NCBI RefSeq assembly: GCF_004010195.1
Contig: NC_057751.1
Span: 4,080,961-4,144,960 of the forward strand
Reading direction: 5' to 3'
Length of the DNA: 64,000 bases
Source of the DNA: Chiloscyllium plagiosum
Lineage: Eukaryota
In this document: positions 13,066-61,720 of the stretch, one piece after another
Numbering within the stretch: the first letter of the stretch is position 1
Layout of the letters: each line of letters opens with the position of its first letter
Program-made: the position numbers and the translations under genes
The notes under the pieces: model-generated
Told to the model about the DNA's origin: nothing
Databases searched by the model: none
What the model saw: only the letters and a program-made list of their open reading frames with translations

Positions 13066-13269
13066 TCGGTAGAATGTGGAGCTGGAAAGTCACGGCAGGT
13101 CAGACAGCAAGGGGAGGAGCAGGAAAGTCGACGTTTCGAGTCGGGACCCTTCATCAATCTGAATGAAGAATTCCGACCCAAAACATCGACTTCCCTTGCT
13201 GTCTGACCCGCTGTGACTTTCCAGCCCCACATATTATCGACTCTGTCTTTGCAGCATCTGCAGTTCTTA
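13066..13269. mobile_element. Fold-back element from a Penelope-like (PLE) terminus, degenerate hammerhead
   Basis: Inverted arms (ctggaaagtcac...cagacagcaaggg / cccttgctgtctg...gtgactttccag) with a cagcatctgcag end and eroded TGATGA..GAAAC motifs. Confidence 0.65.
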
Positions 13270-13500
13270 TTATCAATAGAGATAAGTAGCAAGGTATAAA
13301 ATAGACCCCAGTGTAACTGAAGGGATTCATAAATGTCCCAAAACCAGCCCTGCCTTTTTTGGACCGGGAACTTGTTGGCCTTACCAATCTGTTTTACGAA
13401 CATGCAAGTCCGATCCTAAAACAACGGTTGATGCTAAACTTTCTTGTGGCGTTGCCTGGCTTGGTACTTAGTTTTATCAAACTGTGTCACTACAATTGTG

Positions 13501-13736
13501 AGGACAAAGCGAGGACTGCAGATGCTGACGATCAGAATCAAAAAGTGTGGTGCTGGAAAAGCACAGCCGGTCAGGCAGCATCAGAGGAGCAGGTGAGTCG
13601 ATGTTTCAGGCAGAAACCCTTCATCAGGAATTAGGCTCATTCCTGATTAAGGAGCTTATCCCCGAAACGTCGATCCTTCTGCTCCTCTGATGCTGCCTGA
13701 CCGGCTGTGCTTTTCCAGCACCACACTTTTTGACTT
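13501..13736. mobile_element. Fold-back PLE-terminus element with TSD
   Basis: Arms of about 93 bp spanning 13538-13733. Flanking repeat tgtcactacaattgtg / tgtcactggaattgtg at 13485-13500 and 13737-13752. Partly eroded hammerhead cores. Confidence 0.8.
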
Positions 13737-21244: not shown

Positions 21245-21986
21245 CCAAGTTTAATCCTGTCAGAGGGAGCAGTCCCTTTAGCTGTTGGTGCCTGAAATTT
21301 TTAAAATTTCTTCCCGTAATCTCTCTCCTTTCAGACCCGGCTTTACATCTTTGAGGCACCTGTTAAAACCAAAAGATTTGATCAAGCTCTTTGTCATCAG
21401 ACGTTGCTCATTGTAAAAGTTAGTTTTATATTGCCACCCTGAAATGTCTTGATTTGTTTTATTGTGTGAAAGTTACTTGACAGTTATGCTTAACTTACCA
21501 TTCCAAAAATGCACAATACCCTTATTCTGAATTGGAATATTGTCAAGGGATTATTTAAAATTAAAAATGGAAAGAAGAACTGAGAGTGCTGGAAATCATA
21601 ATCCAGCAATTCCTGTTTGCATTGTTTTTTGCTCATCTAAGATAGAAGATGGGAACATAGTTCAACACCTGATCCTGAAAAAAAGCCCTGTGACAATGGA
21701 GCACTCGCATGGTACTGGATTAGATTATCATACTTGACTTGTCTATTCCCCTCCTGGATTGAGACATGAACTCATAACCATCTGACTCAGATGGGAGGGT
21801 CTGACGCATTGGACCTCAAAATTGTGAAATTGTACATAATCAATAGCTGTGATACTACTTGAGATGGCAATTAAATCGTGCTGAGCCGAGTAAGCTTGAA
21901 GTCAATCTGCTTGCCACTTCAAAAACCAAACCGTAATTGTTCGGGACTTGGTGTGCGCTGGTTTGAGATGACTGGGTGTGAAAGAG

Positions 21987-22220
21987 GAGAAAGTGAGGAC
22001 TGCAGATGCTGGAGCTCAGAGTCGGAGAGTGTGGTGCTGGAAAAGCGCAGCAGGTCAGGCAGCATCCGAGGAGCAGGAGAATCGACGTTTCGGGCATAAA
22101 CCCATTAATCTGTAATGAGCATAATTCCTGATGAAGGGCTTATGCCCGAAACATCGATTCTCCTGCTCCTCGGATGCTGCCTGACCTGCTGTGCTTTTCC
22201 AGCACCACACTCGACTCTGA
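21987..22220. mobile_element. Fold-back PLE-terminus element with 12-bp TSD and hammerhead core
   Basis: Inverted arms. TSD ggtgtgaaagag at 21975-21986 and 22221-22232. CTGATGA-A-GGGC-TTAT-GCCC-GAAA at 22128-22151. Confidence 0.85.
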
Positions 22221-39032: not shown

Positions 39033-39358
39033 TGGTAAAATCAATGACTGCAGATGCTGGAAACCAGATTTTGGATTAGTGGTGCTGGAAAAGCACAGCA
39101 GTTCAGGCAGGATTGAAGAAGTTTTCCTCCTCTCTCTACAAGAATCTCAGGGAGTCCCTCTCCCACTGCAACTCCCAGGTCATTTCCTCTGCCCTGAACC
39201 TCTATTCTATGCTACTTTCTCCCCACCTTCCTCTCATTTATCTCTCCACCCTTCAGGCACTCTGCCTGTATTCCTGATGAAGGGCTTTTGCCCGAAACGT
39301 CGATTTTCCTGCTCCTCGGATGCTGCCTGAACTGCTGTGCTTTTCCAGCACCACTGAT
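39033..39358. mobile_element. Fold-back PLE-terminus element with 15-bp TSD and intact hammerhead core
   Basis: TSD ccagaataatgttgt at 39018-39032 and 39359-39373. A partial inverted arm, a pyrimidine-rich spacer, then the + arm with the core. Confidence 0.85.
39270..39305 (+). ncRNA. Minimal type I hammerhead ribozyme motif (PLE type)
   Basis: attc-CTGATGA-A-GGGC-TTTT-GCCC-GAA-ACGT-C-gatt. Palindromic ACGU stem III, GUC cleavage triplet, weak stem I. Confidence 0.6.
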
Positions 39359-39571: not shown

Positions 39572-39793
<222 letters not shown>

Positions 39794-41225: not shown

Positions 41226-41812
41226 CAGGAAATTACGTGGATCTTTTTTTCTTTATGCTCCCTTTACATGGAAAACCTTTCAGTTGTTAGATTCTCCAAC
41301 CACCACCCCAGTGAAGAACTGGCTGAGCAAATTGGAATGACTCGTGGCTTAGAGACTTAGAATTTGTCTTTGGGATGTGGTATACTCTAATTTCTTGAAC
41401 TATAGGACTGCATAATTCACTTTTTTGCTCAATGACTGCAGCTGTGTTGTGTTTCTTTTTAACTTTACACTTTGTTCCTTTCAAAGTGCATCTGAGATGT
41501 TTCAGTTACTGGATCTCAGATGTATTTTGCTTGTGCTGCAGATCTATCCCACTCTGTCCGAGTATCATGAACGACAATACAGATTAACCGAGGCACCTGC
41601 ATGGTTACAATATTGATTTGTACTTCATATTTAGAAAATCTGGATTTAAGTAATATTTTATACACAGTCATAATTCTCAAACATGGCGATTTGATGCTTC
41701 CAACAAGTTTTACATTTTCGGCCTTTCAAGCAGTGAGAGAAAATGAGAAGACGTAAGTGGTAGTTTTGAGTTAATTTTGTTGAGCTCACATTATGGCTTT
41801 ATTCATTCACAG

Positions 41813-42804
41813 GCCAATACGACACAATGAGATTTTGCCTCCAGAAAAAGGTCGTGAGGTCGCCAAAGAATTGGGAATCCCCTATTATGAAACCAGCGTG
41901 GTGGCCCAATTTGGCATTAAAGATGTCTTCGATAATGCCATCAGAGCTGCCTTAATTTCCAGGCGGCACCTCCAGTTCTGGAAGTCACATCTGAGGAATG
42001 TTCAAAAGCCTTTACTCCAGGCCCCATTTCTGCCTCCCAAGCCACCTCCCCCCATCATCACTGTCCCAGATCCCCCCAAGACCAATGAAGAGCATCCCGC
42101 CCACTTATTGGCCAATCCTCTTTGTGCAGATGTCATCCTGGTGCTTCAAGACAAGGTTAAAATCTACGCCCACAAGATTTATCTGTCTACCTCCTCCTCT
42201 AAATTTTATGACTTGTTTCTAATGGACCTCAATGAAGAGCCAGAGTCTGGCAGTGAAAGAGCAGTGAGCCACAATGACAGGCAGGGCAGGGAACACTTAA
42301 TGAGAGCTGCTAGTTTTGATGTCAGTGAAAGTACAGATGAAGTTCCAACCACCCAACCATTATCCAATCTTCGAGCCTCTACCAGTGATGGTATCTTGAA
42401 ACTGAATGCCTGTGATCACAGTGCAAGAGCAAAAGCATGGCTCAAAAGAAGAAAGATATTATCGACGTGGAGCAAAGCTTTTATCAGCATCCAGGAAGAG
42501 ATGGCTGAAGATCCCATCACGCTGAACAATCGGCTGATGACTGTTGTCAGGATGGACTACTCTGTTCACCCTGATGCGTTCAGTGCTGTCATGCATTACT
42601 TGTACACTGGCCAGCTGGATGAGAATGAGAAGGAGCTGATGCAGATAGCCCACATTGCAGAGCTGCTGGAGGTTTTTGACCTGCGTATGATGGTCGCCAA
42701 TATTTTAAACAATGAGGCCTTCATGAACCAAGAGATTACCAAAGCATTCCACGTGAGGAGGGCAAACCGTGTCAAAGAATGCCTTGCCAAGGGGACCTTC
42801 TCAG
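41813..42804 (+). CDS. RHOBTB2: RhoBTB2 coding exon 4 (end of GTPase, proline-rich region, split BTB1)
   Basis: [29 protein letters not shown]...PPKPPPP...CADVILVL...[17 protein letters not shown]...[11 protein letters not shown]. cag| acceptor, |gtaaac donor, 992 nt, phase-consistent. Confidence 0.98.
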
Positions 42805-43534: not shown

Positions 43535-43830
43535 CCTCACGGCGCCAGGGACCACTGTCTGTTTGGAGTTTGCACATTCTCCTTAAGTCAGTGTGGGTTT
43601 CCTCTGTATGCTCTGGTTTCCTCCCAAAGTCCAAAGATGTGCACCTTAGTTGGATTGGCCATGCTAAATTGTCCATTGTGCAGAGATGTGCAGGCTATAT
43701 GGGTTAGCCATGGGAAATGGAGGGTAATAGGAAAGGGGTGGGGGTAGGTGTAAGTGGGATGCTGTTCAGAGAATCAGTGTAAACTTGATAGACTGAATGG
43801 CCTGCTTCCACACTGTAAGGATTCTGTGAT
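43535..43830 (+). mobile_element. Diverged V-SINE
   Basis: ggagtttgcacattctcc...gtccaaagatgtgca V-domain and a degraded tail. Confidence 0.7.
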
Positions 43831-43938
43831 TGATGAGCTGACAGATGCTCACAGCATTGAGTGTGTTGAAGATATGCATTGTTGAAACTTTATTGCTGGA
43901 ACAGCACAGCAGGTCAGGCAGCATCCAGGGAACAGGAC

Positions 43939-43974
43939 ATTCGACGTTTCGGGCACAGGCCCTTCTTCAGGAAT
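43939..43974 (-). ncRNA. Minimal hammerhead ribozyme motif
   Basis: Minus strand reads ATTC-CTGAAGA-A-GGGC-CTGT-GCCC-GAA-ACGT-C-GAAT, with a perfect 4-bp stem I and stem II. Confidence 0.7.
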
Positions 43975-44173
43975 CTTCTTCAGGCCATTCAGTATTCTGT
44001 ATGTTACAATTAGATTCCCCCTCATCCTTCTGAACTGAGTATAGATGCAAAGTCTCCAAAGTTCTTCATATTCCAGCTTTTCATTCTTGGGACCATTCTC
44101 ATGAACCTTCTCTGAACATGCTCCAAGATTAGTACATCCTTCCTGAGATATGGGGCGCAAAACCGCATACAAT

Positions 44174-44209
44174 ACTCCTGAAGAAGGGCCTGTGCCCGAA
44201 ACGTCGAAT
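44174..44209 (+). ncRNA. Minimal hammerhead ribozyme motif
   Basis: actc-CTGAAGA-A-GGGC-CTGT-GCCC-GAA-ACGT-C-gaat. The 5' strand of stem I is altered at the capture junction. Confidence 0.6.
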
Positions 44210-44429
44210 CTCCTGTTCCCTGGATGCTGCCTGACCTGCTGTGCTGTTCCAGCAATAAAGTTTCAACTTTGATCTCCAGCATCTGCAGACCTCACTTTCT
44301 CCTCGAAGATATGCATTGCTCCAGTGTTCTATTTTGATTATGTTTTTATGGAATGATGCCAGTTTAATGGGAAGGTGTTTCTCTGTACAGAGGTGTGTGT
44401 ACTTGGCTGATGCTGCACTGAACATAAAG

Positions 44430-45012
44430 CAGGGATGTACCTCTAAGGTTCTGGAAGGCTCTGGTCAGACCACATTTGGAGTATTGTATGCGGTTTTGCG
44501 CCCCATATCTCAGGAAGGATGTACTAATCTTGGAGCATGTTCAGAGAAGGTTCATGAGAATGGTCCCAAGAATGAAAAGCTGGAATATGAAGAACTTTGG
44601 AGACTTTGCATCTATACTCAGTTCAGAAGGATGAGGGGGAATCTAATTGTAACATACAGAATACTGAATGGCCTAGACAGAGTAGATTTTGGGAAGATGT
44701 TTCCATTGGGAGGAAAGACAAGGACCTGAGGGCACAGACTGAGAGGAAAGGGAAGACTTTCGGAACAGCGATAAGGAGAAACCTCTTCAGCCAGAGAGTG
44801 GGGAATCTATGGTATTCACTGCCACAGAAGGCTGTGGAGGTCGGGTCATTGAGTATATTTAAGACTGAGATAGATAGGTTCTTGAGTATCAAGGGGATCA
44901 AGTGTTATGGGGAAAAAGCGGGAGAATGGGGTTGAGAAACTTATCAGCCATGATTGAATGGTGGAGCAGAGTCAATGGGCTGAATGGCCTCAATTCTGCT
45001 CCTGTGTCTTAT
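44430..45012 (+). mobile_element. CR1-type LINE 3' fragment (donor of the captured segment)
   Basis: LVRPHLEYCMRFCAPYLRKDV, RRMRGNLIVTYRILNGLDRV, FSQRVGNLWYSLPQKAVE, then the tail. Confidence 0.85.
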
Positions 45013-45221
45013 GCTCTGACAAATCTGAGAATGCTGATCTCGTGAATCTGGATGCTCACTTTGGACGCGGTTGGGGGCTTTGGTGGGGCAGTCATTGATC
45101 AAAACAATCCGACAATTGGGGGCCTGAAAGAGGCCTGGTTCCACTGCTTATAGATGGAGGAGTGTGTGTTGTACCTCACACTGCAAAGCAATTTCTTTGT
45201 GGCCTGTAACATTTTAATCAC

Positions 45222-45316
45222 ATTCCTGAAGAAGGGTTTTTGCCTGGAATGTCAACTGTCCTGCTCCTTGGATGCCGCCTTACCTACTGTTCTTTTCCAG
45301 CACCACACTTTTTGAC
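45222..45316 (+). mobile_element. Single degenerate PLE-terminus arm
   Basis: attcctgaagaagggtttttgcc...ttttccagcaccacactttttgac. Confidence 0.65.
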
Positions 45317-45895
45317 CGTAACATTTTAATGTTCATAATGGGCTCATCATGACGAACTGCAGCTGCCCAACATAGCGACTGCCTCTCAAGCAGGATGCCT
45401 AGGTCGCTGTGTCCGTGAAAAATTGTTTCTTCCCAATAATATAAGCTGAGTGCAGAACGCAACATAGCAGAACTGTGCAGGTTCAAAGCCCAGAGTACAT
45501 CATGATGTTGAATACACTGATTGAGCTAAGATTGATGACTGTTTGGTTTCAGTGGTGTAAATCTGGCCACTGTTTATCTCAGCAGGATTTTTTTTTGCAA
45601 TGAAGGCTGTTCAGCTGCTTTGATTGTCACCCTGCAAAACATCAGCCTCGCCAACTCCTTATTGCATTGTCAGATAGGGTTAGGGGTAATAAAATTAATG
45701 CAAAGTTGCCATGTCAATCTTGTGTCTTCCTTTTAACTTCTTGTTGATGATGAGCCTCGATGCCAGGATAAAACTAAAATTGCCCTTCACAATCTTGAGG
45801 AAAGCACAGCAGGTCAGGCATCATCACAATCTTGAGCCTGTTCCCTTTAATCACCTTTTGAAAGAAGCTGACAATGTTATCCTGACTTCACTTAC

Positions 45896-49100: not shown

Positions 49101-51190
49101 TGCCAGGATGTTGGGCAGATAAATTTCTGTTGGTCAAATCAGGCAAATGACGTTGCACTGTTTGGTTTTTAATCAGAAAGAGATTAAGGGGACAGGCAGT
49201 CACTTTGGCATTGCTATGGCGACAGCTTGACCAATTGAAATTTGCCAGCTGACACTGACAGTTAAGATTGACAGTTTACTGTTGTACTAATCAATCAGCA
49301 GCCTCTTCTCACGCTGCACAAATTGGTGTCCCTTTTTCTCAAGTCTTCGGTCGGTTGAGTGCAAGGTGAAAAGCTTTGACTTCGTGATTGCCTGTGACAG
49401 TACACAACTTAAACACTATCAAGCAATTTCTTTGCCAAAGTGCTTCTGCTGAATCAGTTGTGAAAGCAGATTCACAATATCTTTGTACTTTGGCCTATTT
49501 CTCCAGAGTCTTTAAGTGTGTTTAAGTGAACAGGAGTACAAGCCAAAGCATCTCGCGTTCTGTCCTGGAGCTATCAGATATTAATTAATGATTCTATTGC
49601 CTTGATCTTGACAATTTCCTCTGGTGTTGTTGCCAGGAAATGCAGACAGGAACACATCAGCTTAAAATAAGAACAAGTCAGGCCTAGTGAAAGCATGCTT
49701 CATGAAAGTCTTCAACTTTTCTACTCACAAAAACATGTTGGGGGTGGGAATGGATTGTGAATTTCAAAGCTCACTGATAAATTGTTTGCTAGAGAAAGGT
49801 TTTGAGGTCCGTGAAACCAAGGCAGGTCTATAAAGGTACAAAACAAATGACTGAATAAAACAAAAAGTGATTCTCATTCAGAGTCGACAAAGACTTGACT
49901 GGCCAAATGCTCTCCTTCTGTGCTGTTAAAATTATGTCATTCTGACAGATTGAGAGAGTAGATGACCTAATTAAATCCCAATATTCCAAAATTAAGAATT
50001 TCTAAATTCTGCAGTTCAAGCTACCCGAGTAAAAAATGATGTCTGTGTTCTTGATTGTATCAAGGGTTGCTTTGGAGATCAGAAATATTACTTTAAGGAT
50101 GTCAGGAGATGAAAAACTGGCTCAAAGGTAGCAGTGTGACAGCTCTTACCTGAATTTAGGAGGGATATAAAGAAACAGAGTCCCTCATGATGTGGAAAGG
50201 GCTGGGTATTCATTACTGTCTTGAAGAACATAGAGAAGCTCAATCTGGAAGATTCAACAGGGCACTGCCCCGGAAACATGCACAAAAAATAGAAACAAAA
50301 GCCACGCAGCGATCAGGACAAGTTTTATGTCTTGGCTCGCATTGAATAGGTGAAAGGATTAGTAGGTGATTTCATTTAGGATTACTGATCTGGGAATGTG
50401 TGTTCAAATTTGATTATATTGACATTTGAACCTAAGTCAATCTGGAATTAAAAGCTAGTCTCACGGCAACTGCATATCAATCGTCGTCTTAAAATGGGGT
50501 CACAGACAAATGTTGGTCATTCTATTTGTGAGCTTCTTGCAGAGATGGAGCAAGTTCATTGTTCATGATTGGATGCTGAGCACCAAGCTTAATTGTATAT
50601 CTTCCATTCAGAAACACTTTATCCAGTAATCCTTTGGTTGGGCAGCAGCCAATTGCTGTCATGATTTCTGACAGTCCTTAGTTTGGTTGGATCACTCGTC
50701 ATGTTCGAAGTTTCTGATGGCTTGTGTAACATATCCCACTGTGGTAAATTTCTCACCAGTCATTAGCAGCATCATGCTGTGCATTGTTCTGCAAGTTGGT
50801 GTCTTATTGCCTGAGGAATGAGGATCTCTGTCAATATTGCAGCACTTGTTTCGCTAACTCCCGTTCAGAAAGATATCTCCATGGCAACAACTTAAAGAAG
50901 AAAGATGTAAAGACACTGGGGAGAGTAAAAGATTTACAAGATTGATTCTGGGGTGAGAAATTGCAGTTATGAAGATAGATGGAAAAAGTTGGGGCTGCTT
51001 TCCTTGGCGAAGGTGGAGAGGGGGTTAGATAGAAGTAATTCAAATCATTCCAAATCAATATTAACGTTAAATCTGTCCAGCTGATGAAACAGATGCTTCA
51101 TGTTCTCTGAATTTGTTACAATTTGTGCAACTTTCAGAGACACAGATCATGTTGAAATTAGCCTTGTCTATTGTTCTTGTTTGCTGGCAG

Positions 51191-60332: not shown

Positions 60333-60442
60333 GGGCGGCACAGTGGCACAGTGGTTAGCACTGCTGCCTCACAGCGCCAGAGACCCGGGTTCAATTCCCG
60401 CCTCAGGGCCTGTTTCCACACTGTAAGTAATCTAATCTAATC
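60333..60442 (+). mobile_element. Internally deleted HE1-like SINE (head joined to tail)
   Basis: Intact tRNA-like head fused at agg (60405-60407) to gcctgtttccacactgtaagtaatctaatctaatc. The V-domain is absent. Confidence 0.85.
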
Positions 60443-60615
60443 GAGTGGGTTGTTTTGTCCTGATTGACGTTGAGCTACTGCACTGTTGTTGCAGCTGCAC
60501 CCATCCAGGTAAATGGAAAGTATTCAATTAGACTTCTGACTTGTGCTTCACAGGTAGTGATGAGGAGGTAGGGAGTCAGGAAGTGAACTACTTGCTGCAG
60601 AAGACACCCAACGTC

Positions 60616-61720
60616 TCAGCCTCCACTGCACTCTGTGGCAATGGATTCCACAGGCCCACCACTCTGGCTGAAGAAATGTCTCCTCATTTCCATTCTAAAT
60701 TGAGTCCCTCTAATTTTAAGGCTGTGCCCACGGGTCCTAGTCTCCCTGCCTACTGTAAACAATTTCTCAGCATCCATCCTTTGTAAGCCATGCATTATCT
60801 TGTAAGTTTCTGTTTGATCTCCCCTCATCCTTCTAAAGTCTAATGAATACAATCCCAGGATCCTCAGCTGATCATCATATGATAGGCCAACTATTCCAGG
60901 GATCATCGATGTGAATCTCTGCTGGACACGCTGCAGTGCCAATGTGTCCTTCCTGAGGTGTGAGGCCCAAAACTGGAAGACAATATTCTAAATGGGGCCT
61001 AATTAAAGCTTTATAAAGTCTCAGAAGCACATCACAGCTTTTACATTCCATCCCTCTTGAGATAAATGACAACATTAAATTGGCTTTCTTAATCACAGAC
61101 TCAACCTCGAAATCAACCTTGAGAGAATCCTGAACTAGCACTCCCAGATCCCTTTGTACTTCGGCTTTATGAATTTTTTTAGATTAGATTAGATTACTTA
61201 CAGTGTGGAAACAGGCCCTTCGGCCCAACAAGTCCACACCCACCCACCGAAGCACACCCACCGAGATCCATTCCCCTACGTTTACCCCTTCACCTAACAC
61301 TACGGGCAATTTAGCGTGGCCAATTCACCCTAACCTGCATGTTTTTGGATTGTGGGAGGAAACCCACGCAGACATGGGGAGAATGTGCAAACTCCACACA
61401 GTCTGAGGCGGGAATTGAACCCGGGTCTCTGGTGCTGTGAGGCAGCAGTGCTAACCACTGCGCCACCCGTTTTCTCACCGTTTTAAAAAAAATAGTCCAT
61501 GCCTGTATTCTTTTTTTACAAAGTGCAAGACCTTGTACTTGCTCACATTGAATTTCATCAGCCATTTCCTGGACCACTCTCCTAAACTGTCTGAAGCTTT
61601 CTGCAACCTCCCCACCTCCTCAGCACTACCTGCCTGTCCACCTCACTTTTGTATCATTGGCAAACTTAGCCAGAATGCCCCCAGTCCCTTCATCCAGATC
61701 ATTAATATATAAAGTGAACT
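60616..61720 (-). mobile_element. CR1-type LINE fragment interrupted by a SINE
   Basis: LYINDLDEGTGGILAKFANDTK, LYKALIRPHLEYC, LQRVQQRFTSMIPG...TRTRGHSLKI. Confidence 0.9.
61179..61468 (-). mobile_element. HE1-like V-SINE nested in a CR1
   Basis: Head, shortened V-domain, tail and (taatc)n end. It splits the CR1 sequence gaatttt|...|ttttctcaccg. Confidence 0.85.

Follow-up and report, generated by a model that had tools for sequence, protein, structure and literature searches.

The window, meaning the whole stretch of DNA that was analysed, covers 64,000 nucleotides of the Chiloscyllium plagiosum genome, and all positions given below are counted from its first letter. It contains a Ras-family exon, a BTB-domain exon and a further BTB-like exon of a plus-strand gene (Table 1) and, judging from this combination of Ras and BTB exons, the host gene would be of the RhoBTB type. 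The cassette described here (43868-44318) is located in a predicted intron of about 8.4 kb of this gene, where a single cassette of this kind represents a neutral-looking intronic scar. Elsewhere in the window, at 60343-61466, a LINE fragment seems to divide a SINE that is itself partly inverted, with inverted matches between 60343-60406 and 61403-61466 (97%) and between 60405-60442 and 61182-61219 (100%).

From left to right, the cassette is composed of a 14-nt target-site duplication (TSD), a short inverted arm, a 10-nt re-copy, an insert, a long forward arm and the second copy of the TSD. The coordinates that a sequence-only reading had assigned to these features are all correct, and both the 3-nt microhomology that it had described at each insert junction and the 10-nt re-copy are present in the sequence. 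The two arms are identical at 91 of 92 nt; a private change is found in the short arm at 43938, where the other letter is carried by 174 of 184 and 153 of 173 raw family reads. Each arm is interpreted as a cDNA, with priming on the top strand for the short arm and on the bottom strand for the long one. The same reading had also regarded the inverted repeats as nested. They are instead interleaved, in the order left arm, insert, right arm and source and, in the predicted fold, the 197-bp duplex between insert and source forms and the duplex between the arms does not.

Table 1. Host exons, cassette components and insert source in the window
Feature	Position	Strand	Remarks
Ras-family exon	39572-39793	+	plus-strand gene
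Open frame with upstream host exon, BTB domain	41784-42803	+	donor GT after 42803
Left TSD copy, 14 nt	43868-43881	+	100% identical to right copy
Short arm, Penelope-like element end without tail	43882-43974	-	stops at the family's short end
Minimal hammerhead motif, short arm	43939-43974	-	4-bp stem I intact, no stem III
10-nt re-copy of the short arm's inner end	43975-43984	+	last 3 nt common to insert
197-nt insert, exact inverted copy of 44478-44674	43982-44178	-	sequence alignment
Minimal hammerhead motif, long arm	44174-44209	+	core 44178-44184, stem II 44186-44197
Long arm, element end with tail	44176-44304	+	first 3 nt common to insert
37-nt tail, delimited by the two outer end sites of the family	44268-44304	+	
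Right TSD copy	44305-44318	+	identical to left copy
Source of the insert, inside decayed LINE fragment	44478-44674	+	repeat block 44419-45020
Next BTB-like exon	near 51190	+	plus-strand gene

The insert aligns with the reverse complement of its source without a single mismatch over 197 nt, the match ends exactly on both sides, and the source starts 159 nt beyond the right TSD, within a LINE fragment that, from its translation, we take to be CR1. In a genome-wide search, the two window copies were the only ones with 100% identity among 40 scored of 3,668 candidates, the best match among the other 38 reaching 85%. Within this scored set, 44478-44674 is the sole perfect partner of the insert, as had been anticipated. 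Moreover, an alignment of 206 columns that includes the 8 best other copies sets source and insert apart at 14 columns, of which 7 are deletion columns. Since these private columns are common to source and insert, the insert was copied from this particular decayed LINE copy, in agreement with the earlier proposal that it carries the decay changes of its neighbour. A young dispersed CR1 as the donor is ruled out by the same columns and by the 85% identity of the next-best match. The general claim of a local template, copied at about the time at which a recent Penelope-like insertion occurred, is upheld.

On the evidence of their sequence, the arms are identified as the ends of a young, endonuclease-bearing Penelope-like element (PLE). 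A 37-mer taken from the arm has 11,451 copies without mismatch in the genome, as counted by pattern search. A longer copy of the family (locus L124) contains an open stretch of 130 amino acids that matches PF01541 (GIY-YIG; E 4e-5, above the cut-off) and ends about 160 nt upstream of an arm identical to that of the cassette; the window copy is 5′-truncated and carries no GIY-YIG. Copies of the family terminate at either of two sites about 36 nt apart, and the features that distinguish Penelope-like insertions, namely an inverted pLTR, a one-sided tail of 30-40 nt and a TSD, are all found. In the accessible text of PMC11167929 the tail is tied to two adjacent start sites of the reverse transcriptase (RT), and a related protein is described which cleaves both strands of the target in vitro and extends them, starting from two adjacent sites; a one-sided tail of the same kind also appears in the available part of PMC8557442.

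Older related elements populate the same gene within the window: four are fold-back pairs, one is an arm on its own and one is a 23-nt remnant of an arm that stands between 13-nt direct repeats (13081-13263, 13500-13720, 21984-22204, 39048-39350, 45224-45311 and 45787-45836). Outside the window, four dispersed loci (L077, L080, L093 and L094) have in common a rearranged, element-derived centre of 200 nt, indicating that a rearranged element unit can amplify, though no host-derived centre did. Furthermore, loci L017/L018 and L029 are near-identical long-armed pairs with the same flank, situated about 3.5 Mb apart on contig C1, and represent either a segmental duplication or an assembly duplicate.

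The organization of head-to-head pairs was analysed in 65 unselected insertions located in the first part of contig C1 (among loci L011-L040 and L106-L145). As the second batch of 40 omitted pairs already present in the short-centred listing, the proportion of pairs in this set cannot be taken as a genome rate. Each of the 24 simple head-to-head pairs combines one long, tailed end with one short, untailed end, an outcome with a chance of about 1.6e-8 if the ends were independent. The set also comprises 2 complex pairs and single copies with 15 long and 24 short ends; one end is atypical and one locus was left unclassified. At loci chosen for their long centres, simple pairs follow the long-plus-short rule in 39 of 44 cases. 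An overlap of at least 2 nt with the continuation of the element is seen at 38% of the 58 long outer ends and at 50% of the 56 short ones, where chance would give 18%; in this cassette the overlap at the long end amounts to 6 nt, that is, the first 6 nt of the right TSD equal the continuation of the element beyond its long end (target-RNA microhomology). Because the overlap is above chance at both ends, both look like priming sites on RNA, and the long-plus-short rule points to two separately primed cDNAs. The inner ends of the unselected pairs cluster within about 10 nt of the hammerhead core.

We consider it probable that the cassette derives from one Penelope-like insertion with a templated repair patch at its centre, which sealed two cDNAs. 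As suggested by the TSD, both target strands would have been cut 14 nt apart and, following cleavage, each 3′ end would have primed its own cDNA on the element RNA, one from the long start site and the other from the short start site about 36 nt upstream. Both cDNAs end at a family hotspot just 5′ of the hammerhead core, where synthesis presumably comes to a stop. The two single-stranded tails so produced, being of the same sense, would be unable to anneal, and their joining through a few bases of microhomology would give the ordinary head-to-head pair. In this cassette, by contrast with that ordinary outcome, one tail would have paired by 3 nt with the flank beyond the right TSD, a template probably exposed by resection, and would have been extended along it to yield the 197 nt of the insert. 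The tail may then have been released, re-primed on the other tail, as the 10-nt re-copy suggests, and sealed. End joining by Pol theta generates microhomology and iterated templated filler at junctions. Both are seen at the junctions described here, matching this signature, and a host end-joining enzyme of the Pol theta type seems likelier as the patch polymerase than the RT of the element.

A different route had been proposed at the outset, in which the polymerase switched from element RNA to neighbouring DNA and back again. The local template stands; the return does not, because the sequence that follows the insert, when read from the right TSD, is element sense, and a return to sense RNA could not have yielded an inverted arm. 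The element's RT might nonetheless have jumped from element RNA to neighbouring DNA, the inverted arm being produced by self-priming or on an antisense template and no host repair polymerase being required. The geometry would be the same and all switches fall at the end point of the cDNA; in addition, L1 ORF2p reportedly uses DNA templates (PMC11702581, in its accessible part), and self-priming has been proposed for head-to-head pairs (PMC3846280, likewise). However, copying of a fold-back would not lead one to expect that, in all 24 pairs, the second arm stops at the other start site of the family and has microhomology to the target, and we hold this route to be unlikely.

To place the cassette among its relatives, pairs with centres of 48-358 nt were collected with two patterns and filtered against plain element continuation, giving 57 rows and 54 distinct insertions; the filter passes about 56% of random centres, and this cassette was itself missed. 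A near-exact copy of the local flank, 25-262 nt long, occupies the centre in 24 of the 54, so that the suggestion to survey fold-back copies for spacers matching nearby sequence brought 24 further cases. In a cross-locus control, matches were obtained in 6 of 552 pairs and were just 27-37 nt long. Including this cassette, 13 of 25 patches are inverted and 12 direct with respect to their sources, which are found on the long-arm as well as on the short-arm side. In the 23 cases with a called TSD, the gap between cassette and source is at most 843 nt, with 269 nt as the median; another source lies about 1.8 kb away. The TSD measures 13-19 nt in 23 of the 25 patched cassettes measured. A complex re-copy of flank and arm (L078) was excluded from the local-copy count; in the remainder of the 54, three centres (L074, L088 and L090) are unassigned and 22 consist mainly of element pieces or short filler.

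Four of the 54 centres are foreign and have no source within 10 kb, one of them coming from another scaffold, which implies that resection of the flank is not the only route to a template. Specifically, the centre at L082:1546-1800 is a 255-nt copy, 99% identical, of L146:2901-3155 on another scaffold, a distant template with no element arm within about 3 kb. The other three are the centres of L061, L071 and L083 (130, 169 and 301 nt): the first has no second match in the assembly, and the last is a LINE piece whose nearby matches reach just 80-88%.

Filler is present at 19 of 48 junctions, often as re-copies of the arm ends. At the filler-free junctions, microhomology of at least 2 nt is observed in 15 of 29 (19 nt in one of them), chance being about 17%. 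No asymmetry emerges between near and far junctions, filler being confined to the near one in 6 cases and to the far one in 5; this comparison, made to identify the strand on which synthesis began, thus points neither to a starting strand nor to a role of resection. The share of patched pairs is estimated at about 2% (about 43 after correction for the filter, vs 2,037 short-centred palindromic pairs), with a denominator that omits pairs having trimmed or mutated anchors.

Those 2,037 palindromic pairs would equally provide substrates for a later revision of the centre, in which an ordinary near-perfect palindrome first landed and afterwards broke at its hairpin tip and was patched, a process called centre-break revision. 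In line with such a dependence on the palindrome, no clear local patch of at least 20 nt was seen in 38 single-arm copies, a result that is also expected at a rate of about 2%; no TSD of at least 10 nt was called in 22 of the 67 loci of this search. Against a later break, inserts are as diverged from their sources (22 of 2712 positions, 0.81%) as arm is from arm (11 of 1700, 0.65%; p = 0.59), which fits a single event. Moreover, both arms retain 0-10 nt, mostly 4-8, past the core and thus reach the normal stop point of the cDNA, with no evident sign of a central deletion. Breakage after insertion is accordingly judged quite improbable. One locus excluded from the patch count, L115, has a single arm enclosed by a tandem duplication of host DNA that measures about 120 nt, and the duplication may have preceded or accompanied the insertion.

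The template could also have been the nascent RhoBTB pre-mRNA, copied by the element's RT. The site is intronic, and one such case is reported for L1 in the available text of PMC10191854. On the other hand, the sources cluster at distances of up to about 1 kb, whichever the side or orientation, a pattern that suits DNA exposed near the break better than a long transcript, and the orientation at one locus cannot decide, as either cDNA is extendable. An RNA template is, on these grounds, very unlikely.

Sequencing support for 43600-44470 was sought in three sets of contigs and in about 4% of one raw run; the resulting evidence is an inference from coordinates and depth, and repeat copies swamped the records. 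Run X15 contains a contig that ends exactly at 43881 and another that carries the TSD, the right flank and 16 letters, which corresponds to the 30-nt overlap expected of an empty allele. Run X1 has a contig whose first position is exactly 44305, together with a record at half depth over the left TSD; run X5 (organism B) gave no informative piece. These records suggest that an empty allele exists and that the insertion is polymorphic and recent. The empty allele that had been recommended as a check thus has some support from X15 and X1, but no record that bridges an insert junction figures among those listed from the three contig sets and the raw run, and this cassette is confirmed in the assembly only.

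That last point, together with the absence of mismatches to the source, the division of the assembly into 101,977 contigs and the right-flank contigs of X1 and X15 that cross the start of the source without interruption, although an insert-bearing allele would be expected to create a branch there (which cleaning of the contig graph could hide), would accord with a library chimera or a misassembly at a hard-to-sequence palindrome; yet 9 of 25 inserts differ from their sources, at the rate at which arms differ from each other, the junctions bear fillers and iterated re-copies, and 2,037 tighter palindromes were assembled without patches, an argument for the class and less for this copy. An artefact appears highly improbable.

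The sequence-only reading had further envisaged that the cassette packages host sequence between two ribozyme termini. The arm motif agrees with the minimal hammerhead described in the accessible text of PMC4209133, having a CUGANGA core, an extra base before stem II, GAAA, a palindromic stub in place of stem III and a stem I of 4-5 bp. An Rfam search of the window returned no family, hammerhead included, and in the folding prediction only stem II forms, leaving the monomer without an active hammerhead fold. The two motifs lie on opposite strands and face outward, away from the insert; hence the insert is not enclosed by two cut sites in any single transcript. The right-arm motif is the only one in sense orientation on the plus strand, with a predicted cut after 44205, and the insert supplies the letter at 44175 that mismatches its 4-bp stem I. 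Among the 28 foreign centres, none is common (at least 30 nt, at least 95% identity) to another of the 56 centres compared. Given the arrangement of the motifs, the mismatch in stem I and the lack of any recurring centre, the packaging proposal is not sustained.

Retrozymes are non-autonomous elements bounded by ribozymes, which form direct repeats on the same strand and enclose a centre common to the copies. The cassette resembles them in having hammerhead motifs on either side of a non-coding centre, and differs in that its motifs are inverted and each centre is unique. A retrozyme-like mobile cassette was therefore considered and rejected, the motifs not being on the same strand and the insert occurring, among the scored genome matches, only here and at its source. 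In a lizard element, the RNA is described as requiring sequence beyond the RT start sites (accessible part of PMC11167929), sequence that the inserted stub would lack. The cassette is a dead-end scar and not a mobile unit. An exon or an enhancer could in principle be duplicated, in the form of a local copy shorter than about 300 nt.

Taken together, a near-exact copy of the flank that lies inside the TSD and is absent from other copies identifies the insert as a locally templated insertion at a retrotransposon junction. The cassette is one of a recurring class of repair scars and, as no captured centre has been seen to move again, not a shuttle for host DNA. The long-plus-short rule, the microhomology at the outer ends and the foreign DNA at the centre add up to a concrete two-cDNA model, testable in the existing in vitro system (PMC11167929). 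Tentatively, and as a serious possibility short of the probable, we propose for the family as a whole that twin priming is fixed, with one cDNA per start site, that the tails are sealed by templated end joining, and that about 2% of events copy up to about 260 nt from a site up to about 2 kb away or from another chromosome. If true, fixed twin priming would replace the antisense self-priming model and explain the one-sided tail, and thousands of young pairs would constitute a natural record of the reach of germ-line repair. In this class, a retroelement is seen to duplicate short stretches of local DNA and to add inverted repeats to introns, at a rate that can be measured.

With respect to known systems, the cassette corresponds to the head-to-head insertions of endonuclease-positive PLEs, as far as these are described in the accessible portions of PMC3846280, PMC8557442 and PMC11167929, in its inverted 5′-truncated copy, one-sided tail of 30-40 nt, TSD, minimal hammerhead and upstream GIY-YIG. 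Unrelated sequences captured between solo pLTRs with TSDs are reported in PMC3846280, whose available text describes no local source; here, in contrast, the origin of the captured DNA lies in the flank of the very site of insertion, and the cases are counted. The same source attributes head-to-head pairs to self-priming on an antisense template, and PMC8557442, in its accessible part, presents the formation of PLE inverted structures as unresolved; compared with antisense self-priming, the counts obtained here favour two primings. Within a literature search of mainly open papers, neither a locally templated patch nor twin priming was found reported for Penelope elements.

Further parallels come from other retrotransposons. 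For L1, the available texts report 22 templated insertions vs 3,598 insertions, typically within 15 bp of the site (bioRxiv 10.1101/2024.08.27.596794), four target-site foldback inversions of about 52-220 bp, one of them with twin priming (PMC10191854), and further templated insertions (PMC11702581). As in those cases, a new retrotransposon insertion takes up a copy of nearby genomic DNA shorter than about 250 nt; unlike them, the median gap is here about 270 nt, the two orientations are about equally frequent, and the patch lies between two cDNAs. In R2 snap-back, the 3′ end of the cDNA primes synthesis on the cDNA or on nearby target DNA before joining but, according to the accessible text, the R2 cases are engineered single-cDNA insertions at a fixed site in human cells (PMC11371274). 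Finally, as in L1 twin priming, both nicked strands would prime cDNAs that are joined by microcomplementarity. In L1, however, the second primer is internal and variable in position, whereas the start sites are here fixed, about 36 nt apart, so that the two cDNAs represent the same stretch and together make a palindrome.
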